Assembly (NCBI GenBank): GCA_034429055.1
Contig: DAOUGK010000039.1
Span: 1 to 42,744, forward strand
DNA: 42,744 nt
Source: Anaerolineae bacterium
GTDB taxonomy: Bacteria; Chloroflexota; Anaerolineae; CG2-30-64-16
Direction: 5' to 3'
The notes beneath the pieces are model-generated. The model was given only the letters and a program-made list of their open reading frames with translations, did not search any database and had not been told where the DNA came from. The translations under genes and the position numbers were made by a program. The first letter of the stretch is position 1; each line of letters starts with the position of its first letter. Below, in pieces: positions 2,167-32,934 of the stretch.

Positions 2167-3671
2167 CCGACACCACACCCGACACTGCAACGAACGACCC
2201 GCGCGCCGCGGCGCCTCCTTCCGAGAAGCTGCCGCTCTGGCGCAAGCTCGGCTACGGCCTGGGCGATATCTACGGCGGCGGGTCGCTCGTCGTCGTCAGC
2301 TTCTACTATCTCATCTTCCTGACCGATGTCGTCCGGCTCTCGCCCGCGCTGGCCGGCACGGTCATCCTCATCAGCAAGGTGTACGACGCGATCACGGATC
2401 CGCTGGAGGGGGTGCTGTCCGACCGGACGCGCACGCGGCTCGGCCGGCGACGGCCCTACCTGCTGGGCGGCATCCCGCTCATCTTCCTGTCGTTCTTCGG
2501 CCTGTTCTACCCGGTCAACCTCGACTCGGAGGCGGCGCGCTTTGCGTTCGTCGTCGCGACCTACCTGTTCTTCTCCACGGTGGTCAGCCTGGTCATGCTG
2601 AATTACAATGCGCTGCAGGCCGAAATCACGCTGGACTACAACGAACGGACCTCCCTCAGCTCGGTTCGGATTGCGTTCTCCACGCTCTCGTCCATCCTGG
2701 CCGCGCTCCTGCCGCTCGAAATCGTCAAGGGGTTCGGGGATGTCCGCCAGGGCTATATCGTCATGGGGCTGGTCTTTGGGGTGCTCTTCGCGCTGCCGTT
2801 CATTGCGACCGTCGCATCCGTACGCGAGCGGCGCGAATTCCAGAAGCCGCCCGCCCGGCTCGACCTGGCCGCGACGCTGCTGCGGCCGTTCCGCATCCGC
2901 ACGTTCGTGCACGCGCTGCTGATGTATCTCTTTGCATTCGTGGCGATGGATGCGGTCAGCAGCATCGTCGTCTATTTCATGAAGTACTACCTGAACCGGG
3001 GCGACGAGGCCAACTACGTCGCGGGCACGCTCCTCGTCTTCCAGGTGCTCTCGCTGCCGCTCTATGTCGCGCTCAGCCGCCGCACCAGCAAGCGGCTCGG
3101 CTTCATGGCCGGCGGGCTGCTCTGGATCGCGGTGATGTTCGTCAGCTTCCTCATCACCCCGGCGAGTCCCTGGCTCCTGGTCTACGTCTTCGCCGCGCTC
3201 GTCGGCCTGGGCACGGGCGGCATCGTCGTGATGATCTACGCCATCTTCCCCGACATCCCGGATGTCGATGAGCTCCAGTCCGGCCAGCGCCGCGAGGGCA
3301 GCTTCGGCGCACTCATCTCGCTCTCGCGCAAGCTGAGCTCCGCGCTGGCAATCTTCGCAGTCGCCAACGTCCTGGGCTGGGCAGGCTACATCCGGCCGGT
3401 CGAGCAGGTCGTCAACGGGATGACGCAACTGGTGGACCAGCCGCAGTCGCCGGAGTTCGTGCTGGTGCTCCGCCTCATCTTCGCGTTCCTACCGGTCGTG
3501 CTCGTGGCCTGCGCCGTATTCTTCGCCAGCCGCTACCCGCTGAACGGGACGGCGCACGGCCGGCTGAACGCGCTGCTCGCGCGGCGCCGCCGCGGTGAGC
3601 CTGAGACGTCGGAGACTGCTGTGGAGGCAGCCGCGCTTGAACGGCTGCTGATCGGACAGAGGAAAACATGA
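2163..3671 (+). CDS. Glycoside-pentoside-hexuronide (GPH):cation symporter family MFS transporter (MelB-like)
   Basis: LWRKLGYGLGD ... ISKVYDAITDPLEGVLSDRTRTRLGRRRPY is the classic GPH loop 2-3 signature, and about 12 hydrophobic segments follow. The start is called at TTG 2163, overlapping the upstream TGA (TTGA). No in-frame ATG is nearby, so the exact start is uncertain. Confidence 0.8.
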   Translation: MTDTTPDTATNDPRAAAPPSEKLPLWRKLGYGLGDIYGGGSLVVVSFYYLIFLTDVVRLSPALAGTVILISKVYDAITDPLEGVLSDRTRTRLGRRRPYLLGGIPLIFLSFFGLFYPVNLDSEAARFAFVVATYLFFSTVVSLVMLNYNALQAEITLDYNERTSLSSVRIAFSTLSSILAALLPLEIVKGFGDVRQGYIVMGLVFGVLFALPFIATVASVRERREFQKPPARLDLAATLLRPFRIRTFVHALLMYLFAFVAMDAVSSIVVYFMKYYLNRGDEANYVAGTLLVFQVLSLPLYVALSRRTSKRLGFMAGGLLWIAVMFVSFLITPASPWLLVYVFAALVGLGTGGIVVMIYAIFPDIPDVDELQSGQRREGSFGALISLSRKLSSALAIFAVANVLGWAGYIRPVEQVVNGMTQLVDQPQSPEFVLVLRLIFAFLPVVLVACAVFFASRYPLNGTAHGRLNALLARRRRGEPETSETAVEAAALERLLIGQRKT

Positions 3672-5689
3672 CGGTCCACGCCTCGCCCGGCTACCGCATT
3701 CGCCCGGCAGCTCCGCCGCCGCCCGGCTATCCGGCAGAGGTCAGGCCCGATGACTTCGCAGCAGAGCCGGATGAGATGACCTTCGAACAGCGCCGGACCG
3801 CTTTCCTCGCCCACTGCCTCGCCAATCCGGCCGCAGAGAACACCAAGAGCGTGTGGCACGAGCTGGCCCGGCTCGCAGCCGGGGGAGCCGTCCATGAAGG
3901 CGCGCTTCATGCGACGCTCGACTTCATCGACGCCCGGCACGACTGTGCAGACTTCGCGCTCCACGGCGTCCTGCGTCTGCTGTACCAGTTCGGCGGGCAT
4001 CCGGGGCTGAGTCCCGCGCTGCTCGACCGCTGCCGGCGGACGGTGTTGGACTTCAAATACTGGCCCAATGAACCAGGCGTGGATTCCCTGTGCACCTGGA
4101 CGGAGAACCATCACATCCTGTATGCCAGCGCCGCGTACCTCGCAGGCCAGCTTGCACCGGACGCGATCTTCACCAATTCGGGCCATACCGGGGCGGAGAA
4201 GATGGCCCTGAACCGGCCGCGCATCCTCCGCTGGCTGGACCTGCGCTTCCGCACCGGTTTCTCCGAGTGGCTCTCGAATGTCTATTACGATGAGGACCTC
4301 GCAGCTCTGCTCTCCCTGGTCGACTTCTGCCGCGATGCGGAAATCGCGGCGCGCGCGGCGATGGTGCTCGACCTCCTGCTGCTGGACCTCGCGCTCAACA
4401 GCTATCGCGGCGTGTTCGGCAGCAGCCATGGCCGCTCCTACGAGAACAGCAAGAAATGGGCCGGCAACGAAGGCACGACCGACACGGCGAAGCTGCTCTT
4501 CGGCATGGGCCAGTACTCCGGCTTCGACAACATGAGCGCGGTGGCCTTCGCGTTGAGCCCGGCGTACCGCGTGCCGCCGGGCATCGCCGCCATCGCACGC
4601 GACACCACCCGGCCCGTCATGGAGAACCGGCAGCGGATGGGCATCCGGCTGGCCGAGGCGGAACGCTGGGGCCTCGGGTTCGACAGTTTCGAGGATGGGA
4701 TGGTCTACCTGACGCTGGAGGCCTATCTCCATCCCCGGACGGTCAACCTGGTCATGCGGATGTTCGATGCGTTCCGCTGGTGGGACAACGCCTTCTTCGC
4801 GCCTTTCAAGCCGTACCGTAAGCTGCTCGCGCTGCTCCGCCGGACGCACACGCTGCCGCTGCTGGCGCGGCTCTTCGAATGGGACCTGTGTCGCAACACG
4901 CGCGAGGAAGTCAACATCCAGACCTATCGCACCCCCGACGTTATGTTGAGCTGCGCACAGGACTACCGGCCAGGCTATGGCGGCGACCAGCAGAGTATCT
5001 GGCAGGCGACGCTCGGCCCCGACGCGGTCTGCTTCACTACCCACCCCGCCAGGCTCATCGGCCCTTCGCCCAACTACTGGACCGGGTCGGGCGTGCTCCC
5101 GCGGGCGGCCCAGTGCGGCCGCGTGGTGATTGCCATCTACCGCAGCCACCGGAAACCGGCGCTCTACGTGCGCGGCCGGCTCGCCTTCACCCACGCGTGG
5201 CTGCCGCGCGACCGGTTCGACACCGTGGTCGAGCGCGGCGGGTGGGTGTTTGCCGTAAAGGGCGACGGCTATCTCGCACTGTACTCGCAGCGGCCCTGCC
5301 GCTGGCAGGACGAACCGGGAGAGGACCAGGGCCGCGAGCTCATCGCAGAGGGCGCGTCGAACATCTGGATCTGCGAGGTCGGGCGGCGGGCCGACGACGG
5401 CGGCGCAGACGATGGGGAATTCGAAGGGTTTGTCGATCGCATCTGCCAGGCCACCGTGCAGACAAGCGGGCTGAACCTGACGTATGATTCGCCTTCCGAG
5501 GGCCGGCTGGAATTCGGCTGGCACGGCCCCCTGCGCCGCAACGGCCAGATCGTGCCGCTGCACGACTATCCCCGCTACGAGAACCCCTACGTCACCGCTG
5601 ACTTCCCTGCAGAACGCATCACCGTCCGTGCGGTCGGGCATGTGCTCACCCTGGATTGGCTGACGGCAACGCGCACATACGAGCAGTAA
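3668..5689 (+). CDS. Hypothetical cytoplasmic protein, helical N-half plus beta-rich C-half; possibly polysaccharide lyase/glycoside hydrolase-like
   Basis: This is a 673-aa ORF whose ATG overlaps the upstream stop (ATGA at 3668-3671), with AGAGGA upstream and no signal peptide. I cannot assign its motifs (ARHDCADFALHGVLRLLYQF, CTWTENHHILYASAAYLAGQ). Its context is a sugar-utilisation operon. The CDS call is solid but the function is a guess. Confidence 0.5.
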   Translation: MTVHASPGYRIRPAAPPPPGYPAEVRPDDFAAEPDEMTFEQRRTAFLAHCLANPAAENTKSVWHELARLAAGGAVHEGALHATLDFIDARHDCADFALHGVLRLLYQFGGHPGLSPALLDRCRRTVLDFKYWPNEPGVDSLCTWTENHHILYASAAYLAGQLAPDAIFTNSGHTGAEKMALNRPRILRWLDLRFRTGFSEWLSNVYYDEDLAALLSLVDFCRDAEIAARAAMVLDLLLLDLALNSYRGVFGSSHGRSYENSKKWAGNEGTTDTAKLLFGMGQYSGFDNMSAVAFALSPAYRVPPGIAAIARDTTRPVMENRQRMGIRLAEAERWGLGFDSFEDGMVYLTLEAYLHPRTVNLVMRMFDAFRWWDNAFFAPFKPYRKLLALLRRTHTLPLLARLFEWDLCRNTREEVNIQTYRTPDVMLSCAQDYRPGYGGDQQSIWQATLGPDAVCFTTHPARLIGPSPNYWTGSGVLPRAAQCGRVVIAIYRSHRKPALYVRGRLAFTHAWLPRDRFDTVVERGGWVFAVKGDGYLALYSQRPCRWQDEPGEDQGRELIAEGASNIWICEVGRRADDGGADDGEFEGFVDRICQATVQTSGLNLTYDSPSEGRLEFGWHGPLRRNGQIVPLHDYPRYENPYVTADFPAERITVRAVGHVLTLDWLTATRTYEQ

Positions 5690-5740: not shown

Positions 5741-7462
5741 ATGCTGGGCACTTACGCGTATACACCCTATATGTGGCCGATGCTTATCTCCGCGCTCGTC
5801 TGCGGTGCGCTCGCCTTCTATGCCTGGCAGCACCGGCGCATCCCAGGTGCGGCTGCATTCGCCGTTCAGCAGCTCTTTGTGGCGCTCTGGGCGTTCTTCA
5901 CGGCTATCGAAATGGCCGGAGCGACGCCGGAGACCCGCATTCTCCACCACAAGACCGAAGCCGTTGCCGCGCTGTCGGCCATCAGCGCGGGATTCTACTT
6001 CGCCCTCGAATATGCCAGTTCTGGCAAATGGGCCACCCGCCGCACCGCATGGCTGCTCGCGCTCAATGTCCTGCTGATATCTGCGCTCATCGCGACAAAC
6101 GATCTGCATCATCTCGTCTGGACTCGCATGTGGGTCGACGGCGTAGTCCAGATCGAGCGCGGCGTGCTCAACGCGATCTTGCTCTTGCCGATCTTCATGC
6201 TGCCGATCCTAGGATCCTTCCTGTTTGCGCGACAGCTCGTGCGTTCAGCCGGCATCTATCGCCGCCAGGCCCTGCTGTTATTCATCGGCGCGACTTTTCC
6301 GATTCTCGCCCTCCTGCTGGAAATGGCTAATGTCGACCTGCTCCCACCCCTGGACCCGGTCATTATTGTGTGGAGCTTAAGCGGCCTGCTGTTCGCGCTT
6401 GCCATTTTCCGTTTCAGGTTGCTGGAGGCCCTTCCCATAGGTCGCGACATGGCAATCGAGCGGCTGCCAAGCGGTATCCTGGTGCTGGATGCAGAAGACC
6501 GCATCGTGGACCTGAATCCTGCGGCCGGGAAGGTATTGGGGCTCGAACGCGGGGCAGTCGCCGGCCGTCTGGCCCAAGAGGCTCTGGCACGGTATCCTGA
6601 ACTGATAGGTCCCCTCAGCAAGAAGGTGGCCACCAGCGCCGAGGTGATATTCGAGCGGACCGGCGGGCCGCAATACTACCGGGGAGAGCATTATCCCCTG
6701 ACGCATCCACGTGGGACGCCCCTGGGATGGCTCATCTTGCTCCAGGATGTGACGGAGCAGCGCCGTGCCCAGGCCGACCTGCTGGAACAGCAGGCTGCCG
6801 TGGCGGCACTGCGCGAACGGGAGGAATTGGCGCGGGAATTGCACGACGGATTGGGCCAGGTGCTCGCCTACGTCAAGCTCCAGACAGAGGCTGCACGGGC
6901 GCTGTTGGCGCAGAACCGGCCGGATAAGGCAGACGCCTGCCTGGACCAACTGGCCGTAGCGGCACAGGCTGCTCACGCGGATGTGCGCGATTACATTCGG
7001 GCGGCCACGAGCGAAACTACGCCCGTCAAGCAAGGCTTCCGCGCCGCACTCGAACAGGTCCTGCACCGCTTCAGCCAGAGTCATCGACTTCAGGTCGAGC
7101 TGGATCTGCCGGCGGATCTGCCCGACGAACGCTTCGAACCTGAAGTAATCTCGCAGGTGCTGCGTATCGTCCAGGAGGCGGTGACGAACGCGCATAAACA
7201 CGCTTGCGCCAGCCGCGTTTGCGTACAGGTCGCCGCTCGTGATGGCACGGCAATAGTCACGATTATGGATGACGGCGTGGGCTTTGATCCCCAGCAGATC
7301 GAGAGCGGGGGGTTCGGGCTGAGGTTTATGACGGAACGCGCACAGGCAGTGGGAGGCCGGATACAGGTGCAGTCAGCGTACGGCCAGGGCACGACAATTC
7401 GCGTACAGGTCCCGCTCCGCAAGCAAGATCGCGGCACGAAAAAACTAAGTATCTATCCGTAA
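5741..7462 (+). CDS. Sensor histidine kinase: N-terminal 7TM domain, PAS, HisKA_3, HATPase_c (NarL-partner class)
   Basis: About seven N-terminal hydrophobic helices come first. A PAS-like segment (LPSGILVLDAEDRIVDLNPAAGKVLG) follows, then the H-box ELHDGLGQVLAYVKL (HisKA_3 type). The ATPase motifs are VQEAVTNAHKHA, DDGVGFD and GGFGLRFMTERA. Confidence 0.85.
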   Translation: MLGTYAYTPYMWPMLISALVCGALAFYAWQHRRIPGAAAFAVQQLFVALWAFFTAIEMAGATPETRILHHKTEAVAALSAISAGFYFALEYASSGKWATRRTAWLLALNVLLISALIATNDLHHLVWTRMWVDGVVQIERGVLNAILLLPIFMLPILGSFLFARQLVRSAGIYRRQALLLFIGATFPILALLLEMANVDLLPPLDPVIIVWSLSGLLFALAIFRFRLLEALPIGRDMAIERLPSGILVLDAEDRIVDLNPAAGKVLGLERGAVAGRLAQEALARYPELIGPLSKKVATSAEVIFERTGGPQYYRGEHYPLTHPRGTPLGWLILLQDVTEQRRAQADLLEQQAAVAALREREELARELHDGLGQVLAYVKLQTEAARALLAQNRPDKADACLDQLAVAAQAAHADVRDYIRAATSETTPVKQGFRAALEQVLHRFSQSHRLQVELDLPADLPDERFEPEVISQVLRIVQEAVTNAHKHACASRVCVQVAARDGTAIVTIMDDGVGFDPQQIESGGFGLRFMTERAQAVGGRIQVQSAYGQGTTIRVQVPLRKQDRGTKKLSIYP

Positions 7463-12174: not shown

Positions 12175-12834
12175 ATGCGCCTGCTGTTGGTCGACGATCA
12201 TCCTCTGTTTCTTGAGGGTCTGCACAATCTGCTGACAGCTAAGGGCCTCGTCGTCCTTGGCACGGCGCGCGATGGTCTCGAGGCGCTAGCACAGGTGCGT
12301 GCCCTCAACCCCGACATCGTGCTGATGGACATCCGCATGCCGCGCTGCAATGGATTGGATGCCACCCGTCTGATCAAAGCCGAGTATCCGAACATTCACA
12401 TCGTCATGCTGACCATGTCGGCGGATGATGAAGACCTGTTCCAGGCCATTCGCGTGGGTGCATCCGGCTACCTGCTGAAATCGCAGGAGACTGCCGACCT
12501 CTATCACGCGCTCAACGAGCTGATGCAAGGACAGACCGTTCTTGCGCCCGGCCTTGCACAACGCATCCTGGAGGAGTTCTCGCGCCTCAGTAGTGAGGCG
12601 CCGGATGAAGATACGCCGCACAACGAGGGCTTCGACAGGCTCTCACAGCGCCAGGTGCAGGTGCTCACCCTCGTTGCCAGCGGACTGCCATATAAGGAAG
12701 TTGGACGTCACCTGAGCCTGACCGAACGCACGATCAAATTCCACATGGGCGAGATCATCGCGCGACTGCACCTGCGCAACCGCGCGGAAGCTGTGGCCTT
12801 CGCACACTCCCACGGCATGGTGCGCAAGCTCTGA
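12175..12834 (+). CDS. NarL/LuxR-family two-component response regulator (receiver plus LuxR-type HTH)
   Basis: The receiver reads MRLLLVDDHPLF ... DIVLMDIRMP ... VMLT. The C-terminal HTH reads LSQRQVQVLTLVASGLPYKEVGRHLSLTERTIKFHMGEIIARL. AAGGA lies 9 nt upstream of the ATG. Confidence 0.9.
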   Translation: MRLLLVDDHPLFLEGLHNLLTAKGLVVLGTARDGLEALAQVRALNPDIVLMDIRMPRCNGLDATRLIKAEYPNIHIVMLTMSADDEDLFQAIRVGASGYLLKSQETADLYHALNELMQGQTVLAPGLAQRILEEFSRLSSEAPDEDTPHNEGFDRLSQRQVQVLTLVASGLPYKEVGRHLSLTERTIKFHMGEIIARLHLRNRAEAVAFAHSHGMVRKL

Positions 12835-12955: not shown

Positions 12956-12994
12956 TGTACTCGCAACTGTACTTGCATGACTCACCGGTACAGT
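12956..12994. promoter_or_regulatory. Candidate operator: inverted repeat ACTGTAC-N15-GTACAGT plus direct TGTACT repeats
   Basis: ACTGTAC (12966-12972) and GTACAGT (12988-12994) form a perfect inverted repeat. TGTACT occurs at 12956-12961 and 12968-12973. The site lies in the 230-nt lower-GC gap about 70-110 nt upstream of ATG 13065. A weak -35-like TTGCAT is at 12974-12979. Confidence 0.3.
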
Positions 12995-13064
12995 GACAAT
13001 TTTCCACAACGCGCTATCCTATGTGCGGAGGTAATCTGCCCTCCTGACCCAGAGGATTCCGCAC

Positions 13065-13415
13065 ATGGTCCGCCGAATCGTCTTGCTTGGCCACTCTCTG
13101 GCGATTGACAGCATTGCCGCAGCAATCGGTGCACTGCCGGAGCTAGAGGTGTTCTATGCACCGAATGCCTCCGACTCCCCAAGCGATGTCGCAGCGGACA
13201 TTATCGCGTGCGCACCCACTGCGGTCATCTTTGACCTGACCGCAGGACTTCCAGGTAGCGCCCTCCTGCAGCACCTGATGCCACTTCATATCCCGCTGCT
13301 CGGTTTCGATCTGGAAAAACATCAGATGTTGGCACTGTCCGGCGAGCACATCCGACTGATGACGCGGGATGATTTAGTCGGCGCGCTGGCCACACCGACG
13401 GAGCAACAGCTATGA
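13065..13415 (+). CDS. Small hypothetical protein, receiver-like (possible pseudo-receiver)
   Basis: The protein is 116 aa with GAGGA 8 nt upstream. The alternating beta/alpha pattern (RIVLLGHS ... AVIFDL ... IPLLGF ...) resembles a CheY fold, but the N-terminal acidic pair is replaced by GH. Its stop overlaps the next start (ATGA at 13412-13415). Confidence 0.55.
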   Translation: MVRRIVLLGHSLAIDSIAAAIGALPELEVFYAPNASDSPSDVAADIIACAPTAVIFDLTAGLPGSALLQHLMPLHIPLLGFDLEKHQMLALSGEHIRLMTRDDLVGALATPTEQQL

Positions 13416-14020
13416 TCTCTCCCCGCTCCCTCATTTCTGCAGGCATATTCTTAATGGTTCTGGTTTTCGCAATGACGCTGCATGCAGGGCGACCGGCGAA
13501 CGCCGCTGCCGTTCCGCCGCCGCCGGATACAGTCCCGCTCCTCACTGCGGTATTGGAGGCCGCCAACGGCATCGTGCTGGTGCCTGGACCGCCTGTTTCC
13601 CTGCCCGTCCAGGCGCGGTCTGTCTCCAAACTCGGTGCGGCCACGGTTCTCGTCACCTATGACCCTGCCATCCTGAAGGCAACCGCTTGCCAGCGCAACG
13701 CAGCCTTCGACGTCGGCCTGTGCAACACCGCACATGACCGCGACGGTGACGGAAACGCCGACTCGGTGCTCTTCAATGTCGTGTCGCTCCAGGGCGTGAG
13801 TGCAGGTGAAACGCCTGTCATGCTCGTAAACATCGCATGGGAGGCGGCTGCCGGCGTGCAACCGCCCGCGTTGGCTGACCTCGGCGTACAAGTGCAGACT
13901 TTTACGGATACGAATGGCAGTCCGATGGCTGTCACAGCACAGGATGGGCAAATCACCATCAAGGCCGGCCCGACGCCTGTGCCGCGACGCCGTGTCTACT
14001 TGCCCTTGGTGCTGCGTTAG
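13412..14020 (+). CDS. Membrane-anchored/secreted single cohesin-like domain protein ending in VYLPLVLR
   Basis: The N-terminal hydrophobic segment is LISAGIFLMVLVFAMTL. The cohesin-like core is VSLPVQARSVSKLGAATVLVTYDPAILKATACQRNAAFDVGLCNTA ... VLFNVVSLQGVSAGETP. The extreme C-terminus is PRRRVYLPLVLR. Confidence 0.7.
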   Translation: MISPRSLISAGIFLMVLVFAMTLHAGRPANAAAVPPPPDTVPLLTAVLEAANGIVLVPGPPVSLPVQARSVSKLGAATVLVTYDPAILKATACQRNAAFDVGLCNTAHDRDGDGNADSVLFNVVSLQGVSAGETPVMLVNIAWEAAAGVQPPALADLGVQVQTFTDTNGSPMAVTAQDGQITIKAGPTPVPRRRVYLPLVLR

Positions 14021-16809: not shown

Positions 16810-19800
16810 ATGAAACGCATTTCAGTCATGAGCCGGCGACGCAATCCCATGTTTTGGGTCGCCATGTTGACTGTTTGTCTCCTGCTGAGCGGCGCCGGCA
16901 CGTTCGAGCGGGCAGCGGCAGCCCCGCTGCCCGCACCCGCGCTGCCCGTAACAGATCAGCGGGCGGTTGATCCGGCGCCTCCGGCTGCGCCGGACGCGCC
17001 GGCGGCGCCCGATGACGCGGTCGAGTCTGGCCTCTGGGGCTGGTGGAAATTCGAGGAACAAGGCACCGCCGGCGACGGTACACCCACAACCCCCGACGAG
17101 TCTACGTATGGTCACACGGCCTTTTTCGGCGATGATGGGGGCGATGACTGCCCATCCATGAGCACCACTGAGTATGCGCCAAGCTATATGGCCAACGCGG
17201 GCAGCGCCGGATTCGATGGCAGCAACGATTGGTTCAGCATGCATACGGGCCCGAGCATCGGGAGCGATGACAATTTCACACTGGTGGCATGGATCAAGTG
17301 GACCAATGGCAAGTCCACCATCTTCTTCCAGGGGCAGCCCGAAGACAACCACGGGCTGGTCTTCGGCATCGACCTGGATAACCCCACGATCTATCCGGAC
17401 AGGGGCACCCTGCACTGTGGATTCTGGGACAACGACCTGAGGTATGATCCGGGCGATACGAGTCTGGAAGGTGCATGGCATCACGTGGCCTGCGTATGTG
17501 ACCACGACAACGCCCACGCACGGAAGCTGTATGTCGACGGCATCCTGGTGGCATCTGATTACCCATCCAGTTGGTATGCCGGGGGCGGCGACCTGTGGAT
17601 AGGACGAAAGCGCCCGGATGCTGCCCGATGGGATTTCGGCGGCTACATCGACGAGGCGCGTTTCTACACGCGCGCACTGACCGCCGCCGAGATCAAGGGG
17701 CTGGCCGCGCGCTCGGACACGGCGAACACCTGCTTCACCCAGCCGGTCAACCCATCCGGGACTACTAACGGCACCATCTTTGCCTCAACCGATGCGACGG
17801 CCATCAAGGCCGCCATCGACACTCTCGGCGCGAACGGTGGCACGGTGCGTATCTCCGGCACCTGCACAGGGGTTAGCGAGTATCTGTACCTGTTCACGCG
17901 TAATAACGTAGACTACATGGGTGTGGACTACCAAACGGTACTCGTTCCCACGCTGAACACCGGCAAATGGTTGACGCTGGAAGGCGGCTGGAATAGCACC
18001 TTTACGACCCATGACGCGGCCACCCACCCCACCACTCTGGATGCCAATAACTCCGGACGGGTGGTGTCTGCGCCCGGAACCACGGGTTCCCTGATCCTGC
18101 AGGACCTCACGATAACACGCGGAAATGCGAACACATCGCTGGAAAAAACGCCGACCTCGAGCAGTTGGACGACCGTGCCAGGCAACGGCGGCGCGCTGAA
18201 GACCGGCATACCGACCACCCTCACCAACGTTTCGGTCACCAACAGCCAGGCGGGAGCCAACGGCGGCGGTATTATGGCGGACGCGGCGTTGACGATGACC
18301 GACTGCACGGTTTCGGGCAACCAGACCGGCTATGCCAATCCATCCACCGGTTATTGGATCGCCCACGGCGGCGGCATCGCGGTGGCCGGCACGCTGACCA
18401 TGACCCGCTGCACCGTGACCGGCAACACGGCCACGAACGGCGCAAACGCGCAGGGCCTCAGCTCCTCGGGCGGCGGGATCCACACGACCGGTCCGTACAC
18501 GCTCACGGACTGCCAGGTGACGAACAATACCGCGTATCAAGGCGGTGGGCTGCGACACGTAGCCGTCGATGGGACGATCAGCGGCAGCACCTTCTCAGGC
18601 AACCGCGCGACAAGCGGCAGCTTTGCGGGCTCCTATGATGACGGCGGCGCCATTTACATGTCCAACGGCTCGATGAGCCTCACGAACGACACCAACGTCA
18701 CCGGCAACTCGGCTGACGGTAACGGCGGCGGCATCTTTGTCTCCACCGGCGCGCTCACCGTGTCGGGCGGCAAGATCGGCTGGCGCGACACCGGGCAGGG
18801 CAACACGGCCACCGGTGACGGCGGCGGCATCTACGTGGCCGAAGGTACAGTCGCGCTCAACTCGACGGTGCTCGTCTACGGCAACACCGCGGTCAACGGC
18901 GCGGGCGTCCACGTCAGGGGCGGCAGCCTGACCGTCACCGGCGCGAATATCGGCAGTACGGCGATGGGCGAGGGGAACGTCGCCTCGGGCAACGGCGGCG
19001 GCATCTACCTGGATTCCTGGGGCACGCTGCAGATGTCAACCACGGGTGCGTCCGTCGGGGGCAACCGGGCGGCGCAGGGCGCCGGCGTTTACGTCAACGG
19101 CGGCCAGATGACGACCACCAACGGTCACATTTCGAGCAATACGGCTACCACGGCCGGTGGCGCAATCTATGTCGCGTCCGGCACGGTAACCCTCGGCTCC
19201 ACCTCGACGTCGTTCGACTCGGCACCCAACGGGGCCGGCCTCTATGTTGCGAGCGGCACGGTGACCATCACCGGCGGCACGACCGGGTACAACACAGCCG
19301 CTTCCGGCTCTGGGGGCGGCCTCTATGTCGCGGGCGGCACGGTGGCAGTCAATGGCGGCAACCTCATCGATAACACAGCGACTTCCGGCGGCGGGGTGCA
19401 TGTGGCGGGCGGCGCGGTGACACTGGACGCCGCGACCATAGTGCGCGACAACTCAGCCACAACCGGCGGCGGGCTGTCGGTGGCCGGCGGCACGCTGACC
19501 GCCACCGGCACGACCATCGGCGGTGAGGCTGGCGTCGATTATGACTTCAACAGCGCATCCACCCTCGGCGGCGGGGCTTACGTATCCGGGACCGGCACCC
19601 TGAACCTGACGTCGGTCACGCTGTCCGATAACACCGCCTCAGTAAACGGGGGCGGGCTGCACGTTGCCGGCGGCACGGCAACGGTGAGCGACAGCACGAT
19701 CTCGAATGGCACGTCAGCGTACGGCGGCGGCGTGTGCACCACCGGGGGCACGGCTACCGTCACGGGCAGCACGATTGAGAACAACACCGCGAGCATTACA

Positions 19801-22800
19801 GGCGGCGGCGTCTATGCCTACGGCGGCACGTTGACGGTCACCGGCGGCACAATTCACGACAACAGCGCCACAACCTCCGGCGGCGGCGCGGGCACCGGCG
19901 GCACCGGCACCCTGAACCTGACTGCGACGGTGATCAGGAACAACACCGCTCCGAACGGAGCGGGCGCGTACAGCGGCGCGGGCACGCTGAAGGTCAGAAA
20001 CAGCACCATCTCCACGAACACCGCGACCACGACGGGCGGCGGCGTGCGGGTGGACGGCGGCACCGTGACGCTGGGCCTCACGACGGTGGCCGAAAACCAG
20101 GCCCCTGAGGGCGCAGGGTTATACGCCAACGCGGGGACGACGACGCCGACGAGCAGCATCATCGCCAGGAACAGGACCGCAACAGATGTCTACGACGGCG
20201 ACGTCAAGGCGGTTGCGGGCCTTACCAGCGGCGGCGGCAACGTGATCGGTGTGGGTGACGTGACCGCGTTCACGGCCCAACTGGACCTGAAGGGAATCAC
20301 CGATCCGGGGCTGAGCGCGCTGCAAAGCGACGGTACGCACCATCTGCAGAGCAATAGCGTGGCCGTTGATAATGGCCTCTGCGCGGTGGGCGGCGTGACC
20401 TACACCACCGATCAGCTGGGGCAGCCGCGGCCCGGCGGCGGCGGGACCTTCTGCGATTCGGGCGCGTATGAATTGCAGGTGCTGCCTGTCAACTGCGCCG
20501 CGAGATCGGGCGACACGACGCTTTCCGGCCCCAATGCCCGCATCGTGCAGCAGATGGTCGACACGGTTACCGCGGGCGCAACCATCAAGGTGGCGGGCCA
20601 CTGCAAAGGCGTGGCCGGCACTGACCCGTGGACGCTGGTCATCAACAAGAGCCTGACGCTCGAAGGCGGCTATTCCACCGCTGACAACGAGGCGTGGGAT
20701 GACCCCGACCCGGTCGAACATCCGACGGTGCTGGACGCGCAGAGCCTGGGCGGCGTGGTCTACATGAGCGGCAGTTCTGATATCACGCTGCGATACCTGA
20801 CAATAACCGGCGGCAGGCGCAGTTCGGCCGCGGGTGTGTCTGCCGGTAACGGGTCGCATGCGCACATCGAGTACTGCACGATCATCAACAACCACACGAC
20901 GACAAGCAATGGCGGCGGCCTGACGGCCGGCGGCGGCTCGACGGTCACCGTGATCGGCAGCCTCGTCCAGGGCAACTCTTCGGGCAAAGTAGGTGGCGGG
21001 GTGTACGTTGGCGGCGGCAAGCTAAACCTGATGAATAGCACCGTATACGCGAATACCGCGGAGTGGGGCGGCGGGGTCGCCAACTGGGGCGGAGAGTTGG
21101 ATCTGAAGTTCAACACGCTCAAGGACAACGGCAGCGCGAGCCTGTACATCAATGATGCTACGGTCAACCGCGTCACCGGCAACATCTTCTCAGGAACGAG
21201 CCACTGCTGGTACCAGGGCACCTGGAAGGTCACATCAGGCGGCTTCAACTACATTACCGGCGGCTGTAACCTGGGCACAGCTCCGGTAGGGCGACCCGAT
21301 GTGAAGAACGCCGTCATCGAGCTCGGCGACCTCGACTACAACGGCGGTCCGACGAAGAACTTCCTGCCCGCGGCCACGGTTAGCAACCCCGTGCTGGACG
21401 TCATCCCCGTGAACGCGTGCGAGGAAGTTCTGGGCACGACCCCGCTGGACCAGCGCGGACGGCTGCGGCCCAGCCTGGGCTGGGAGACACACGAGAACTG
21501 GTGTGACCCCGGCTCGGTCGAACGCGGCAAGGAGATCCTGGCAGTCTGCGGCTTGCCGCTCGATATGGAGCTAGAAGGCGGCCCGCGCGGCCGCTGTCGC
21601 TTTGATTCCGTTGCGCAAGCCATGAAGACTGCGGCCGACGGCGACATCATTGTCGTGTCGGGCGTCATCACCGAGAACGTCACACTGAACAAGGACGTGA
21701 CCTTGCGCGGGCCCATGCCCGACTGGAATACGCCGGGCACGCACATGGGGTTCATCCAGGCCTCGGCGGCCCCGCCGACCAGCACCTGTACGGGCGGCAC
21801 GGTCGTCAGCGTGCCGGCTGGCTCCATCGTGACTATCGAGGACCTGAACATTCGCCACGGCTGCGCGATAGACGGCGGCGGCATCAAGAATGAAGGGACG
21901 CTGATCGTCCTGCGCAGCACCGTCTACGATAACCGCGCCAGCGGCAGCGGCGGCGGCGTGTACAACTCCGGCACGCTGACGGTGAAGGACAGCACGCTGG
22001 CGGGGAACGCGGGCACGGATGGCGGCGGCATCTTCAACGCCTCCGGCGCGACCCTGGCCGTGGGCCGGTCCACTTTCAGCGGGAACACCGCAAGCACCAG
22101 CGGGCAGAGCATCGCCAACAGCGGCACCGCGACGGTGGGCGGCTCGATCCTCGCGACCTCCGGCACGGTCGCCCAGTGTACGGCCGGCATCAATGCGGAC
22201 GCCACCAACCTGGAATACGGGCCGACCTGCGGCATGAGCGGGAGCATCGGCGGCGACCCGCAGTTGGAGTCCCTGCGCGACAACGGCGGCGCAACGCTGA
22301 GCTATGCCATCAAGTCCACCAGCCCCGCCATCAACCTGGGTTACACCGGCGCGCCGGAATGCACCGGCCAGGTGGACCAGCGCGGCCGTACCCGCCCGGC
22401 AGGCAGCGCCTGCGACCTGGGCGCGTACGAGTATGGGCCGCGCACCCTTACCGTCGACGCCGCGGCGCTGCAGGACCCGGCCGCACTGCTCTTTGGGGAT
22501 CTCCAGAGCGCGCTCGACGCAGCGATGACGGGCGACATCATCGAGGTGCGCGCCGGCATCTATACGGGCAACTTCACAGCGTACCGCGATGTCACCATCC
22601 GCCACGCCGGGGTCCAGGTCAGCAAGCTGAGCCCCGAGCTGGGCTATGACCTGCGCGCCATCCTGCAGGCCTCGTCGCGTACCCCACAGGAACAACATGC
22701 GCTCGGCACGGGCGGCACATTCGCCGGCACGACCCTCACCGTGCAAGGCTATGCCCCCACCGGCACCAGTTTCGAGCCGACCGGCCAGGTCGCAGTCAGC

Positions 22801-25800
22801 CTGCAGGGGCTGACTATCCGCCACGGCACGGGTAAGCTGGGCGGTGGTATACACAACCTGGGACGGCTGACCATCGACGGCGCGACCATCGAAGGGAACG
22901 CAGCCACGGGCGAAATGGGCGCCGACGGCCGGGGCGGCGGCATCTATAATGCCGGTGACCTGACGGTTACGCGGTCTACCATTTCCAGCAACCAGGCTGA
23001 ACAGTATGGCGGCGCGCTCTACAACGCCAGTCCTGACCCTGCAGTGCCCGTAACAGCCACGGTCACGGCTTCCACTATCGCGTATAACCTGGCGATCCGG
23101 CTGCCCGACCAATACGTGGTTTCGGTGCGCAACACCGGCCTCACCCCTGAAACACTCGACATCATCTCGGGCGATGAGGTGCGTTTCGAGACGCAAGACA
23201 GCCAGGCGCATACGATGGAAGTGCAATCGGTGGCCGACAACATCAGTTGTAAGCCGGCCACCATCGAGGTGCCGCGTTCGGGCCTGGGCCTATCCGTGCC
23301 GCTCATCTGCACGACCTCGGCTACAGCGCCCTTCTCGGGCAGCGTGACCATCCATGATCCCGAATTCCAACACACCCTCATCCTGACCGTATCCGCCGCG
23401 AGTGCGACGCCCGACGGCGCATCCCTGTTCCAGACCGGCAAGAGCAGCGCCTGGCTCGACCGCTCCATCATCTACAGCAGCGGGGCTGCGCGACCCTGCG
23501 GCCGGTTCGCCGATGACAGCCAGGCGACTGTGCTGCCCCAGGGCACGAATCTGTTTGGGAATGAGGCGACTTACGAGGACGAAGGCGCGGCATATGGCCT
23601 GTGCGCCCTGCTGACGGGTGATTACCCGATCGCCGAGCCGTATCTCGGGCCACTGCAGGACAACAACGCGATCGACTTTGCGGCGGGGACTGTTTCCGGC
23701 TACACACATTCCCATGCCCTGCTGCCGCAAAGCCCGGCGATCGACGCGCTCGACGTTACGGCTTGTGGGGCGGCTAGTGCAACCATCAATCTCGACGCCG
23801 TCACTCAGGCAAGCCCCGGCAGCCTCAGCGTGCGTGCAGGCGATATCGTCATGTGGTCCAGCACCGTAGCGCGCACGGTGATGATCGATGACGGCCGCTA
23901 CAACGCGCGACGGGTGGAGGTGCCTGCGGGCCAAACGCCCGTTACGATGCAGGTCAACCAGCCCGGCACACTCAGGTATCGCGTGTATAACGCGGCCAGT
24001 GCGGAGCAAGGTTATGGCAGTATAACCGTCGCCGCGCGGCCCGACCGAGGCACGGACCAACGCGGACTCGCCCTGCCGCAACGGGGTACGACTCAGTCGT
24101 ACAGATGCGACATCGGCGCCTATGAGTTCGCCACCTGGGTGGTCGGGCAGCCGCTGCCGCGGCCGCCGTCCGTCAGTGGCAGCAGCCTGCCCCGTTGGAC
24201 CATCGACGGCGCAGACGCGGCGGGCTACCACGCCTGGAGCCCCGCGCCAATGCTCGATTACGCAATCCGTCCCACCCGCCCGGCAGTCGGTGGGGCAGCC
24301 ATGGAAACCGTAGAGGTCGCGTGGGCGACTGCCACCGCTCCGGCGGATGTAACGCAATTCGGCATCGTCGTCTGGCCGGACCAGCCACAACTCCACGTCG
24401 GCAGCGCCAAGGTCAATCTCAGCCACAGCACTGTCACCGATGGCTTCAATGTGGCGCCCGGTACCGCGCGCGCTTACGAGGGCTACGAGCCGGTCGAGGA
24501 GCTGGCAGGCGCCATCATCGACGGCACTGTCTTTAACCGCACCGAGTTGCACGCGGCGGACGGCGACCCAGAGGAAGGCGACTCGTATTCGGTCGTGCAT
24601 CTCAGCAAGAGCACGCAGTCGAGCGGCAGCCTGAAAGTGCTGGTCATCAAGACGCTGGACTGGGACACTCCCGGCATCCTCGACCTGCGCGACCGCGTAA
24701 CGGCCGACGGATACAGCCAGACCGACTGCGTGATTGGCCGCGAGCTGTCCTACCCGGCATTCAACGACAAGGCGGAAGAGGCCTACACGCTGCCGGGCCA
24801 TGCCGACCCGGAGCAGCGTTCCGGCTGGATCCTGTACGGGGTCGCATATGACGGCGTTGCGACTTCCGCCGAACTGACAACAGCCCAAAACACCGTCGAC
24901 AACCTCATCCCCCCGGCCCATGTACAGGAGATTCGCAACGGGCCGATCATCCCCGTCTTGGAACAGGCGCCGGCGGAGGGTGAGACGGACGCAAGGACGC
25001 AGGACGACCTGCGGGTCGCCTGGTACCAGACGGACAGCCGCAACGTGGCCTGGCCGGTGAAGACTGTGGCCTACCGCTGCCGCTGGCCCGTGGACGCGCA
25101 GACGCCGAAGATCATCGTTGCCAGCGAGCTGGGCTCGGAAATCGCCAACCAGGCTGTGTTGAACACCCGGCAATTCGTGGCGCCGACGGTGTACCATCAG
25201 GTCGACCCGGCGCTGCCCGGATACAGCCCGAACCACGAGCACGCCCTGCTGGCGAGCTCGAACCTGGGCAACACGCAGCCTGCCTTCTACGCGCTGCGCA
25301 CCGACCTGCTCAACCGGAATACGAACGCCGCGCACTGGCGCTCCTACGCGCTGCTGAAGTATCGCGACGCGCGGCAGGAGAACCGGACGCAGATAGCCGT
25401 ATACCGCGTGCTCCTGACGGAGAACGCGCCGGACCTCAACTATGCCCGCGTTCCGGGCGCCATCGGCCTCACGAGCGTGGACCCGCCCGGCGGACCGACC
25501 GCCGGCACGCTGACCCTGCGGGTCGGCACCGCACTGTTTGGCGGCAACACGACCGCGACCGTGCCGGTTGAGGCGCTCAATGGCGCGGGGCTGCATGCGG
25601 CCTATGTCGAGGTGGATTACGACGAGGTCAACCTGGAGCCTGTGAAGTGCGCGCCGAACCTCAACCGGTTTGTCGAGCGACCCTACCGGCCGCAAGTCGC
25701 CGCCGATGACAATATCCTCGTGGGCCATGTGGTGCATCTGCGCGTAACGACCGATGCCGGCTCCGACCTGCGCTACCGGTGGGACTTCGGCGATGGCACG

Positions 25801-28800
25801 GTGCAATATGACGACCGGGTCGTCAGCCATGTCTACGGCGCAGCAGACAGCGACCCGACCACGGTGGACATCATCGACCCGTACCACGTGACCGTGGAGG
25901 TGTCGAGCGGCCTGCTGGACAACATCGTCTCGGCCGGGATCGACGTACACATCCTCGCAACGCAGACCGTACCACCGATCCTGCTTCAGCCGGAGGATCT
26001 GACCGCTCAAACCGGCTGCCGCTTCACCACCGGCGGCAACATCCTGCTCGACCTGGTCGCGCGCAGCAAGCACGGCCTGACTGCCGATTCCCGACTGGCT
26101 GACCTGACCTTCAAGAAGAAGGATGCCTTTACCAGCGGCACCGCCACTGTCGCGGTAACGACAGCCAGCGAACCAAAGGGGCCGGATTACAGCACACTCA
26201 CTTACGGCCTCGGCGCGGGGCTGCCGGTCTATGCACCAACGCCCATGCGCGGGCTGCTGGATATCCAGCCGTGCGCGGAGACGCAGGCCAATACCGAGGA
26301 TGCGCCCTTCTGGAAGGACTGGAAGGGGATGCTGTGGGCCCGCGCAGCCGGCGACATGACCGTCAAGTACTTCTACCCGCTGCAGCGCGGCTTCTACCTG
26401 AGCGACGCCTATGCGGAGGAACTGGGGCTGGTCGATGGGGAGACCGCGGAGGTCCTGACTGAAGAGGAGCGGATCGGCAAGTGCATCCCGTGGTTGGACA
26501 GCCTGAGCAGCTACCCGCCGGAGTCCCAAGTCACATACGAGGACTACTCCGGTGAGGAGCAGACCAGGAATGTGTACCCGGTCAGCTATCATGTGCGCTG
26601 GCCTGAGCTGCCGGCGCTGCTGAACGTCGGCGAGACCGTGTTCCAGCGCGCCAAGGGCGGTGTCTCGGCAGTGGGCAGCCAGGTGGCGGTGACCCGCATC
26701 TATGACGACCTGGCAGAGTCGACCTGGGACAATGACGCGGAAGCGATCGCCATGGACCCGGCTGGCGTCACCCGGTCTGTCGCGCAGCTGATCGACCCGA
26801 TGGCCGAGGTGCAGGTGGAGCTGCCCGTTTGGATCGAAGGGCAGCCCGGCCTGCCGACGGACATCACGACCCAACGGCTGCTCATGGGCGGCGGCACGGC
26901 ACTGACCGGCAATGCCGATGACCCGAACCTGGCGCTGCCGTTCGCGCTGCGCAGCCGCATCGTCTTCCGCGACACTGCGGTGGACCTGGACGGCGACGAC
27001 GAGGCCAACGGCACGCTGGTCTTCAAGGGCTACTACGACGGCGCCTCGCCCGAGTACATCAAGGGCGACCCGCTGCTGCTATTGAACGTGATGTCGGAGT
27101 CCGACAAGCAACGGCTGCTGGACCTCTGCCCGAGTGGGACCGACGAGTGCACCGCGTACCAGGAGGCCGTCGAGGCGCTGTTTTGGAAGACATGGAACCC
27201 CCGCGACCTGGACCTGTGCCGGAACGCGGCGGGCTACCTGCCCGGCAGTGCCGCCATCCCGGCGGTCGATCTCGGCACTCCGGTGGCAGCGCTGTCGGTC
27301 AACTGCCCGAATTACCCGACCTACTTCCGCGACGGCGAGCCCGACCACGCGCTGCTCATTGCAGTGCAGGATACGCCGTCCCTTGACCTGCTGAACGAGA
27401 TCGGTGAGGCTTATGCAGAGGGTGAGCAGGTGGACGGCGTGACGGACACGCCCGACGGCATCCCTGAACCCTTCGAAGGCCTCGGCAAGGGCAAGGCGCT
27501 GACCGCGGGCAATGCCGCGGGCACGGGCTACATCACCCTGGCCTACAACAACGACTCCTCGCTGGGTGGGCTGCCCGTGTCGCTTCAGGTCATCAAGGTG
27601 GAGTGCGCCAAGAACGCCGCGGGCGAGGAAAGCCCCTATCGTGGCAATCTGCTGGTCATCAAGTCGGACAACCTGTTCGACGAGAAGCTGACCATCCGGC
27701 ACACTGGTGACTTCGGCGGCCGGCCCGACAACTTCGACTTCGAATGGTGGATCGCCGCAGTCGATGACACCGGAGTATCACCCTCACTGGCGCCGCCGAG
27801 TTACCCCTGGCAATCCTGGACCGCACCGGAGAAGGGCAGCACGACGCTCGGTCCGCAGATTACCATCGAGGGTGCCAACCCGACCACACTGCGGGATAAC
27901 TGGGTCATCGTGCGCTACAAGAACAAGACCTGCCCGGTCTGCGGCAACCAGTACACCTACAGCGCGTTCGCCGGCGACCCCTCGGCGAAGCCTTCCGAGC
28001 TACGCGCGCAGCTGGCCGAAGGCTGGATCAAGCGGGTGACCAGCGCGCTGAACCCGTTTGACACCCGTGTGGACGACTTCGTGAGCGCACCGACCAACAC
28101 CACGGTAGACATGATCCGGCAGGCCGGCCCGCGGTATGAGGGACCGGTGGCGATGACCAACGATCCCGAGACCCTGAACAACATGGGGCTCATCGAGGCT
28201 TACCAGACAGTGCTCGACCGAGGACGCGACCTCTCGATTGACGCGGGGGTCAACGACCAGGGGGCAAATGCTGCGCTGCTCAACGTGACCTCCCGCATCG
28301 CCAGCCTCTACATGTTGCTGGCGAATGATGCCTACATGGATGCACTCGACCCGACCGTCGGATTGGGCACGAGCAGCAGCCTGGGCGTCCGGGCGCCGGC
28401 CGTGTTTGCCTTCGCGAACCAGTTCCGGTCTGATCAGTTCGGCCTGATCGACGAGGAACTGGCGCTGCTGCGCGGCCGCGACGAGACGCTGGGTGGCGTC
28501 GCCGCGGCGCCCACCTATAATCGGCTGACCTGGAACTTCACGAATGGCGACGGCGAGGTTGCCTACGTGATGAACTACAACATCAAGGACGTGAACCAGG
28601 ATGGGTTCGTCAATGAGGCCGATGCGGCGATCATGTATCCGCAGGGCCACGGTGACGCTTGGGGGCAGTTCCTGACCGCCTTGACCAAGTATTACGAGCT
28701 ATTACGGCACCAGAACTACACCTGGGTGCCGCGCGCCGAACCCATCAGCGTGGCCGGCGCGCCGGTCGTAGTGGATTACTACGACGAGCGGCGCTTTGCC

Positions 28801-32934: not shown

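Follow-up and report, generated by a model that had tools for sequence, protein, structure and literature searches.

A giant Sec-exported protein of an Anaerolineae bacterium with a TcA-like C-terminal module, and the family around it

The window analyzed here, the 42,744-nt stretch DAOUGK010000039.1 (GCA_034429055.1, Anaerolineae bacterium), raises a simple question: what is the function of the 5,374-amino acid (aa) protein encoded by its giant gene, here called the giant? The original prediction, made from the letters of the DNA alone, had proposed a mosaic of lectin, adhesin, toxin-translocator and cohesin/dockerin modules with no described counterpart. The protein has a variable N-terminal half of adhesin type, made of a LamG lectin and four beta-helix modules, and a conserved C-terminal half in which an array of immunoglobulin (Ig)-like beta sandwiches and a helical region with invariant motifs precede ~650 aa that are distantly related to TcA, the channel subunit of the Tc toxins.

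The giant gene and its TcA-like region

As for the gene itself, its plus-strand frame is open from a first GTG at 16756 to position 32934 (5,392 stop-free codons), a run whose chance at the base composition of the window is ~1e-58; translation probably starts at the ATG of 16810, which lies 6 nt after GAAGGAGAGG, and the uninterrupted frame proposed originally was recovered at the same coordinates. The intragenic DNA repeats are rungs of the beta-helices, in units of 75-81 nt with 60-78% identity, and because of this low identity a collapse of repeats during assembly is unlikely. Two independent assemblies hold the gene in synteny with its upstream partner gene (described below): in GCA_048222975.1 the partner is 84% identical and is followed by a giant of 5,373 aa, and in ERZ25039483, on a 1.3-Mb contig, by a giant of 5,446 aa with LamG, PKD and dockerin. 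Many homologues are colinear over the module junctions; for instance, P0001 aligns with residues 808-5331 in a single high-scoring segment pair and P0013 with residues 77-573. Given the length statistics, the dissimilar repeats, the two assemblies and the colinear homologues, the gene is real and intact; an assembly artefact, a chimera or a decaying pseudogene, as a very long gene with repetitive beta-helix DNA on a metagenome-type contig could suggest, is effectively refuted and excluded for practical purposes. The antisense open reading frames (ORFs) inside the gene, one of 1,194 aa (23290-26874, minus strand) and several of 150-550 aa, are shadow ORFs of the kind common in GC-rich coding DNA, and not genes.

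Regarding the C-terminal part of the conserved half, an AlphaFold2 (AF2) model of residues 3706-4905, built from a 29-row alignment, shows a helix of 90 aa, a loop, a helix of 158 aa and then an alpha/beta domain. The mean predicted local distance difference test score (pLDDT) was 63.8 and the predicted template modeling score (pTM) 0.48, with most of the C-terminal 600 aa between 70 and 93; the confidence was probably limited by the few rows of the alignment. When this model was compared with the PDB by Foldseek, ranks 1-22 were all TcA subunits (E 1.7e-8 to 5e-4, probability 1.0, 600-1,070 aligned columns) and rank 23 was the subtracted TcdB1-TccC2/TcdA1 map (6l7i, E 0.06); the first unrelated fold had E 0.8, and SMC proteins and generic coiled coils had E ~1 or above.

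The profile comparison used SepA from the Serratia plasmid pADAP and 120 collected TcA relatives, from which 107 C-termini were aligned; against these, hhalign matched the alignment of 208 family C-termini (aa 4250-4905) with a probability of 93.3%, E 2.7e-7 and a score of 68.5. The confidently aligned part begins at the hairpin tip, covers the second helix and reaches into the C-terminal domain (giant ~4409-4645, SepA ~1994-2184), and at low stringency the alignment is colinear up to both C-termini. As for the controls, the reversed TcA alignment gave E 0.24, ten column shuffles gave E 0.14-0.83, and other family regions set against other TcA regions gave E 0.1-0.8. The tip motif P-x-h-h-G-h-A is common to both groups, as P96%-x-h-h-G96%-h-A/S-N-D in the family and P98%-N-I-F-G99%-L-A in TcA, where this tip loop is the pore-forming loop, conserved and hydrophobic (PMC11435725); the Pro and the Gly of the motif are P4421 and G4425 in the giant. 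In the family, the averaged hydropathy maximum and the charge minimum both fall at the hairpin tip.

By profile and predicted fold, residues ~4250-4905 of the giant are a distant homologue of the TcA pore-forming hairpin and, probably, of the TcB-binding region that follows it. The TcA-like C-terminus expected by the original prediction is supported by Foldseek, by the controlled hhalign comparison and by the tip motif, with its extent reduced from a third of the protein to the last ~650 aa of the core. Similarly, the long hairpin exists in the AF2 model, while its expected hydrophobicity shrinks to a modestly hydrophobic, charge-poor tip that is not of transmembrane grade; across the whole protein, Kyte-Doolittle values exceed 1.5 in the signal peptide alone. 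A coiled-coil artefact was considered as the source of the TcA match and rejected on the Foldseek E-values of coiled coils and the failure of the reversed and shuffled controls, and kinship with phage-tail or tape-measure proteins is unlikely, such matches in BFVD having E ≥ 0.05. The only strong match of the TcA-like model in that viral library was A0A481Z1I0 (Mimivirus LCMiAC02, uncharacterised, 1,032 aa; E 6.6e-8, 951 columns); this may be a giant-virus protein that belongs to the family or is TcA-like, or else bacterial sequence that contaminated a metagenomic bin.

As for the extent of the relationship, the C-terminal alpha/beta domain occupies the position of the TcB-binding domain of TcA and lies within both the 600-column Foldseek alignment and the colinear low-stringency hhalign alignment; it measures ~315 aa against ~175-190 aa in TcA, and PF18276 does not match it. 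The TcA shell and neuraminidase-like domain were not found: they had no Pfam match, and the AF2 model of residues 2506-3705 (pLDDT 80.7, pTM 0.76) is an all-beta array of sandwiches for which Foldseek returned generic Ig and cadherin arrays and never TcA. In addition, residues 2440-3570 and 3571-4300 gave E 0.5-0.8 in hhalign against SepA 900-1750. The whole ~2,450-aa core as a complete TcA equivalent was rejected because its beta and helical regions are unlike the TcA shell and neuraminidase-like domain by structure and by profile.

A family in about ten phyla with a conserved upstream partner

With the C-terminal 2,934 aa of the giant as query, 109 homologues were obtained, and none of them bears a functional name. 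The blocks common to them correspond to residues ~2440-2893, 3125-3470 and 3571-4905, nearly all terminate at the position equivalent to residue 4905, and their N-terminal modules vary (LamG, beta-helix, Big_9/cadherin, PA14, VCBS). A phmmer search over 1.84 billion representatives gave 1,554 clusters (50% identity) at E ≤ 1e-3, 878 of them at E ≤ 1e-30, and among species-representative genomes at least 460 loci were confirmed. The best 80 of these, which were kept, belong to Chloroflexota, Acidobacteriota (Thermoanaerobaculia), Gammaproteobacteria, Verrucomicrobiota, Desulfobacterota, Hydrogenedentes, Omnitrophota, Lentisphaerota and Kiritimatiellia; the gammaproteobacterial carriers include cultured strains of Wenzhouxiangella and Marinicella, and Wenzhouxiangella sediminis XDB06 and Marinicella sp. 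W31 are cultured carriers. Overall, the family spans about ten phyla, and its members, the giant included, generally have a Sec-type signal peptide, as do the partner proteins. Some metagenome-assembled genomes (MAGs) hold two family genes (L021 and L047, L015 and L049, L046 and L080), and in one Desulfobacterales MAG (L038) two family genes stand in tandem, separated by a fragment of the partner.

No description of this family was found in the literature searched, which included the proteome paper of Wenzhouxiangella AB-CW3 and did not extend to subscription journals. The giant is not a one-off mosaic but one member of a very large cross-phylum family with variable N-termini and a conserved operon partner.

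The partner is encoded directly upstream of the giant gene (Table 1). In 37 of the 53 loci with enough flank its homologue immediately precedes the family gene, several apparent exceptions being ORF-calling artefacts, and in 45 it is at most four genes away. The sole Pfam match of the partner is an SdrD_B domain in a lineage-specific insert; its profile had no match in the PDB, and its homologues have no functional name in any source. At residues ~760-772 it carries the motif NPFxHK[YF]HPDHDNxD (here NPFxHKYHPDHDNLD), invariant across Chloroflexota, Verrucomicrobiota, Acidobacteriota and Gammaproteobacteria, which belongs to no known family and looks like a metal-binding or catalytic motif.

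Neighboring genes were compared in 86 loci (the window and 85 others), covering about 10 kb on each side of the defining match or gene. A gene for a PpiC-type peptidyl-prolyl isomerase (~335 aa) lies beside the partner-giant pair in 30 of the 86 (e.g., L003-L005, L030, L013, L054), and further recurrent neighbors are DUF11/lactonase-propeller and Calx-beta/beta-propeller/cadherin-like proteins; elsewhere, downstream beta-propeller proteins occupy the place that a cohesin scaffoldin has in the window. None of the 580 ORFs in these loci has more than two YD-repeat motifs of the RHS type, and Pfam assigned no window ORF and no scanned neighbor gene to a TcB/TcC-type (SpvB) family; therefore, a TcB-TcC cocoon is not linked to the family. 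Pfam also found no holin or endolysin among the window ORFs, whereas pADAP has one beside sepA.

As for regulation, the HisKA_3 kinase and the LuxR-type response regulator of the window are possible regulators of the locus; genes of the same types lie upstream of the verrucomicrobial family loci L003-L005 and were seen in few loci only. Scans for promoters and terminators gave no useful information. Immediately upstream of the partner in L001, the Caldilineaceae locus of P0020, stands a pentameric ligand-gated ion-channel homologue (Neur_chan_LBD/memb, 5948-7153 of that locus). Finally, the window contains sugar-use genes, namely those for glycoside hydrolases (GH) of families GH36 and GH38 and for a transporter of the major facilitator superfamily (MFS).

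Modules of the giant and the cohesin-dockerin layer

The coordinates of the giant, its modules and its neighbors are given in Table 1. Of the modules named in the original prediction, the signal peptide with its Pro/Ala linker, the LamG lectin, the four beta-helix modules and the acidic Pro/Glu tail all hold. In the beta-helix region, Pfam Beta_helix matched at E 2.2e-9, Chlam_PMP, NosD and Cupredoxin_1 matched weakly, and the NCBIfam choice_anch_Q elements lie at residues 1165-1223, 1504-1572 (weak), 1816-1875 and 2278-2319; the last module has cupredoxin-like inserts.

Table 1. Features of the window around the giant gene, in order of position; residue numbers refer to the giant.
Feature	Position (nt)	Strand	Evidence or remark
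HisKA_3 kinase	5741-7462		Pfam
LuxR-type response regulator	12175-12834	+	Pfam
116-aa ORF	13065-13415	+	Overlaps start of cohesin gene by 4 nt; syntenic in L088/L089; no family match
Exported 202-aa protein, signal peptide and single cohesin-like module, C-terminus RRRVYLPLVLR	13412-14020	+	hhalign against profile A5: probability 97.5%, E 6.9e-12
Conserved partner gene, 871 aa	14144-16759	+	Signal peptide; conserved N- and C-terminal domains
Giant gene	16810-32934	+	5,374 aa plus stop
Sec-type signal peptide, then Pro/Ala-rich linker	16810-17034	+	Hydrophobic core aa 13-33 (Kyte-Doolittle)
LamG/concanavalin-A-like lectin, aa 136-296	17215-17697	+	Pfam Laminin_G_3 over its full length, E 2.9e-21
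Four right-handed beta-helix modules, each ending in a choice-of-anchor Q element	17797-23769	+	NCBIfam, Pfam
Family-conserved all-beta region, array of Ig-like sandwiches, aa ~2440-3570	24127-27519	+	AF2, Foldseek
Possible split cohesin around PKD	about 25507-26184	+	hhalign E 0.001, probability 21%
PKD domain, lineage-specific insert, aa ~2963-3011	25696-25842	+	Pfam
Mainly helical region, most conserved in family, aa 3571-4250	27520-29559	+	Invariant alignment columns
TcA-like pore-forming hairpin, aa 4328-4590 (90-aa helix, tip loop, 158-aa helix)	29791-30579	+	AF2, Foldseek, hhalign
Hairpin tip motif GQPFVVGIDND	about 30049-30117	+	Family conservation
C-terminal alpha/beta domain, aa 4591-4905, at position of TcA TcB-binding domain	30580-31524	+	AF2 pLDDT mostly 70-93
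Lineage-specific C-terminal extension	31525-32931	+	Common only to closest homologues P0001-P0006
Putative beta-sandwich in the extension, ahead of dockerin			
Type I dockerin, aa 5065-5124	32002-32181	+	Pfam Dockerin_1 E 3.2e-8, 34.1 bits against a cut-off of 22.9
C-terminal cohesin	32212-32694	+	Profile A5 against PDB cohesins, E 3.7e-5
YLPL motif	32704	+	
Acidic Pro/Glu tail	32725-32931	+	Visible directly in sequence
Scaffoldin-like protein, 1,052 aa	32962-36120	+	Repeat alignment A5; PDB cohesin match

Residues 2440-4905 have no Pfam or NCBIfam name except for the inserted PKD domain, and neither the PDB sequences nor the source annotation names this conserved ~2,450-aa region; searches of the giant against PDB sequences, by single sequence and by profile, returned nothing useful. 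Within it, the helical region holds three invariant motifs at residues 3882-3949 (28453-28656), namely EELALLRGRD (28453-28482), YNRLxWN (28516-28536) and PQGHGD (28639-28656); AF2 confidence was lowest around them, and profile comparison of residues 3571-4250 gave no match to the TcA mid-regions or to the PDB. The cohesin-like fold split by a PKD domain, which had been proposed for the beta region, is borne out by Pfam for the PKD domain, and hhalign points only faintly to the split cohesin around it.

Regarding the C-terminal extension, it is confined to the closest Chloroflexota relatives (P0001-P0006), and most Chloroflexota members (P0007-P0020) keep the core and lack the dockerin. The dockerin proposed earlier was recovered by Pfam, with two calcium-binding segments visible, DVNVSGRRDSADAL and DVTQDGRCNSTDAL, and the C-terminal cohesin by profile A5, which combines this cohesin with the five repeats of the downstream scaffoldin; against PDB cohesins, A5 reached 3.7e-5 for 2XDH and ~1e-3 for 6KG8/6KGC. 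Pfam Cohesin misses the window copies, and the scaffoldin has no Pfam match even at E 10; looking up its exact sequence in public records gave no match either.

The cohesin proteins that flank the giant had been overlooked in the original prediction. They belong to five co-directional, tightly packed genes (13065 to 36120), with a sigma-70-like site (12993-13020) just 5' of the first. The upstream one, the 202-aa cohesin gene, is syntenic in the close relatives L088/L089; the downstream one is the scaffoldin, in which five cohesins follow an N-terminal hydrophobic anchor or signal, and a Thr/Pro linker leads on to a small beta domain at the C-terminus. In another Anaerolineae locus (L009), a scaffoldin homologue that Pfam Cohesin does recognize (E 8e-10) also follows a dockerin-bearing giant. 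The giant carries the only dockerin in the window, and since it is flanked by cohesin proteins on both sides, this arrangement suggests that the giant is tethered to the cell surface by its C-terminal dockerin, bound to the neighboring cohesin proteins. The match between five cohesins and the pentamer expected by analogy with TcA may be suggestive, or perhaps a coincidence. After the C-terminal cohesin of the giant and of its close homologues P0001-P0006 there is a motif [IVL][YF]LP[LV][ILV], often with basic flanks; in the window it occurs at 13994, 32116 and 32704, and the 202-aa cohesin protein ends in it. The motif may be a sorting or anchoring signal of Chloroflexota.

Compared with the cellulosomes (clostridial CipA/ScaB; the Archaeoglobus cohesin 2XDH), the giant likewise has a type I dockerin with a duplicated calcium-binding segment, and the cohesins are likewise either single or, on the anchored neighbor with its Thr/Pro linker, five in tandem. 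However, the cohesins of the window are too divergent for the Pfam model; the giant bears both a dockerin and a cohesin, unlike the cellulosome scheme; and, by Pfam, no dockerin was found on the GH36 and GH38 ORFs of the window and no carbohydrate-binding module on the scaffoldin. Cellulosomes dock enzymes, whereas the docked part here would be a TcA-like giant.

Candidate functions and relation to the Tc toxins

As for the comparison with TcA (Photorhabdus TcdA1, Xenorhabdus XptA1 and XptA2, Yersinia YenA2/TcaB, Serratia SepA), both groups have the same order in the C-terminal ~650 aa, a hairpin with the conserved tip and then a terminal domain that closes the polypeptide (in the giant family, in nearly all members), and both are giant polypeptides with Ig-like or lectin-type receptor-binding modules; moreover, the second large gene ahead of the family gene is reminiscent of type II ABC toxins, in which the A gene is split (PMC6486591). 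On the other hand, the VRP1/ABC_toxin_N shell, the neuraminidase-like domain and the TcA_TcB_BD domain of TcA were not matched in the giant, the TcB and TcC genes (SpvB/RHS) that Tc loci carry occur at none of the 86 family loci, and the giant, unlike TcA, has ~2,400 aa of adhesin modules joined to its N-terminal side and a dockerin and a cohesin to its C-terminal side. Export differs too: the giant has a Sec signal peptide, and TcA subunits are not known to have one. The Tc toxin of Yersinia entomophaga is freed by lysis of a subpopulation of cells that depends on the type 10 secretion system (PMC10847048). Finally, known Tc loci are 96% from Proteobacteria and 3% from Firmicutes (PMC7861908), unlike the giant family with its members in Chloroflexota, Verrucomicrobiota, Acidobacteriota and others. 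The giant family therefore shares the TcA channel module yet stands outside the Tc system as defined, because the shell and the TcB/TcC linkage are absent and a Sec signal is present.

The reading favored here, tentatively and at a little under an even chance, is that of a contact-dependent, membrane-inserting device of the cell surface, built of many modules and exported by Sec. The adhesin modules would bind the target surface first; the hairpins of several copies would then assemble into a helical channel, as in TcA, and the conserved hairpin tip would insert into the membrane, the outcome being a pore or a translocation conduit for antagonism or predation. Such a device would operate without a TcB-TcC cocoon, jointly with the conserved upstream partner protein. 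In the lineage of the window, the dockerin, at what is the TcB-binding end in TcA, would plug into the anchored five-cohesin scaffoldin or into the 202-aa cohesin protein, and this docking would mount the device on the producer surface with the hairpin tip facing out.

Several points weigh against the membrane-inserting device. Regarding the model, the AF2 confidence is moderate overall and below 50 at the very tip of the hairpin, which is mildly hydrophobic and has no Kyte-Doolittle peak above 1.5; the Foldseek TM-scores are low (0.12-0.18), as expected because a monomer model was set against chains from pentamers. The Pfam models TcA_TcB_BD, Neuraminidase, ABC_toxin_N and VRP1 fail on the giant and on two verrucomicrobial members (P0073, P0108), whereas all four match the SepA control, TcA_TcB_BD (PF18276) at 3.6e-51. 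The mechanism is proposed by analogy with TcA, and cargo-carrying TcB/TcC genes were found at none of the 86 loci; the channel does not explain the most conserved region (PQGHGD and the adjoining motifs), the 470-aa extension at the funnel end might obstruct the channel entrance, and most carriers live freely as heterotrophs and are not known as predators.

A bolder form of the membrane-inserting device, which we consider doubtful, makes the family an unrecognized, Sec-exported lineage of the Tc injection channel without TcB/TcC, common among free-living bacteria of about ten phyla, that is, a surface-mounted, contact-dependent alpha-helical syringe with a partner; in the window, a pentamer (by analogy with TcA) would sit on the five-cohesin membrane scaffold through its five dockerins, and the lineage could be the ancestral source of the Tc channel.

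The main rival to the favored device, itself rather unlikely, is a structural, non-toxic adhesin or surface fiber, in which the hairpins would serve as an oligomerization stalk or as an anchor in the envelope of the producer, with attachment to particles, polysaccharides, filaments or matrix. It accommodates well the lectin, beta-helix, PKD and Ig-like modules that precede the helical and TcA-like parts, the surface-type neighbors (DUF11, Calx-beta, cadherin-like and beta-propeller proteins), the cohesin and dockerin parts that point to a surface scaffold, the toxin cargo genes not found at the loci and the largely free-living, heterotrophic carriers. It does not account as well for a hydrophobic tip-loop motif held in common with the membrane-inserting loop of TcA, nor for ~2,450 aa strictly conserved over about ten phyla, which is unusual for a simple spacer; such families usually keep the anchor and vary the rest, whereas here there is a large non-repetitive core with invariant polar motifs. 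Another comparison is that with GhpA, the grappling hook of the predatory Aureispira, also giant, secreted and mostly made of tandem Ig-like domains, whose fragments were among the Foldseek matches of the beta region. These matches are of the generic Ig-array kind (probability 0.5-0.9, TM < 0.21), stand beside cadherins and complement proteins, are no evidence of specific homology and showed no TcA-like module.

An autotransporter-like self-export, in which the C-terminal helices would form a channel in the outer membrane of the producer and export the N-terminal passenger, with the dockerin replacing the anchoring in lineages without an outer membrane, is improbable. Like the type V autotransporters and the Chlamydia Pmp adhesins, the giant starts with a signal peptide, its variable passenger is a beta-helix in which Chlam_PMP repeats matched weakly, and a conserved C-terminal region stands in the place of a translocator; the PpiC-type gene, whose product would be periplasmic, and the prevalence of the family in diderm phyla are also in line with self-export. 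However, type V translocators are beta-barrels, and the giant has no autotransporter Pfam match and a C-terminus predicted to be helical and alpha/beta, TcA-like; an alpha-helical autotransporter would be without precedent, a translocator of more than 2,400 aa goes far beyond the needs of export, and the dockerin is missing from most Chloroflexota members despite their core. In addition, the TcA channel inserts into the membranes of the target and not of the producer (PMC6486591).

Just as improbable is a scaffolded extracellular enzyme complex, displayed in a cellulosome-like manner, in which the helical region would be catalytic (e.g., on polysaccharides or the cell wall) and the likeness to TcA incidental. 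This idea derives from the invariance of EELALLRGRD, YNRLxWN and PQGHGD, since the strongest conservation of the family falls in polar motifs that resemble those of an active site, and the cohesin and dockerin parts and the nearby GH36, GH38 and MFS genes agree with it. Nonetheless, no enzyme family of Pfam, NCBIfam or the PDB matched by sequence or profile, the cohesin-dockerin parts are limited to one small lineage, the GH genes are not kept as neighbors elsewhere, and the TcA signal survives its controls.

In conclusion, what is new is the system around the channel module, and what is known is the module itself, homologous to that of an existing machine. To our knowledge, the Tc toxins are the only known users of a long alpha-helical injection channel, and they occur almost only in pathogens of the Proteobacteria and Firmicutes; because of this, it is unexpected that a family of at least 1,500 clusters retains such a module without shell or cargo cocoon, and with a Sec signal, adhesin modules and a partner of its own. 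The hypotheses are testable, since cultured carriers exist (Marinicella, Wenzhouxiangella). If the mechanism of the membrane-inserting device is true, the phylogenetic range of TcA-type machinery would be much wider, a route to the origin of the Tc toxins would open, and engineered protein delivery would gain new channel scaffolds; abundant environmental phyla such as Verrucomicrobiota, Chloroflexota and Acidobacteriota would have a new mode of contact-dependent interaction, and the cohesin-dockerin mounting, if true, would be a new non-cellulolytic use of the parts of the cellulosome.

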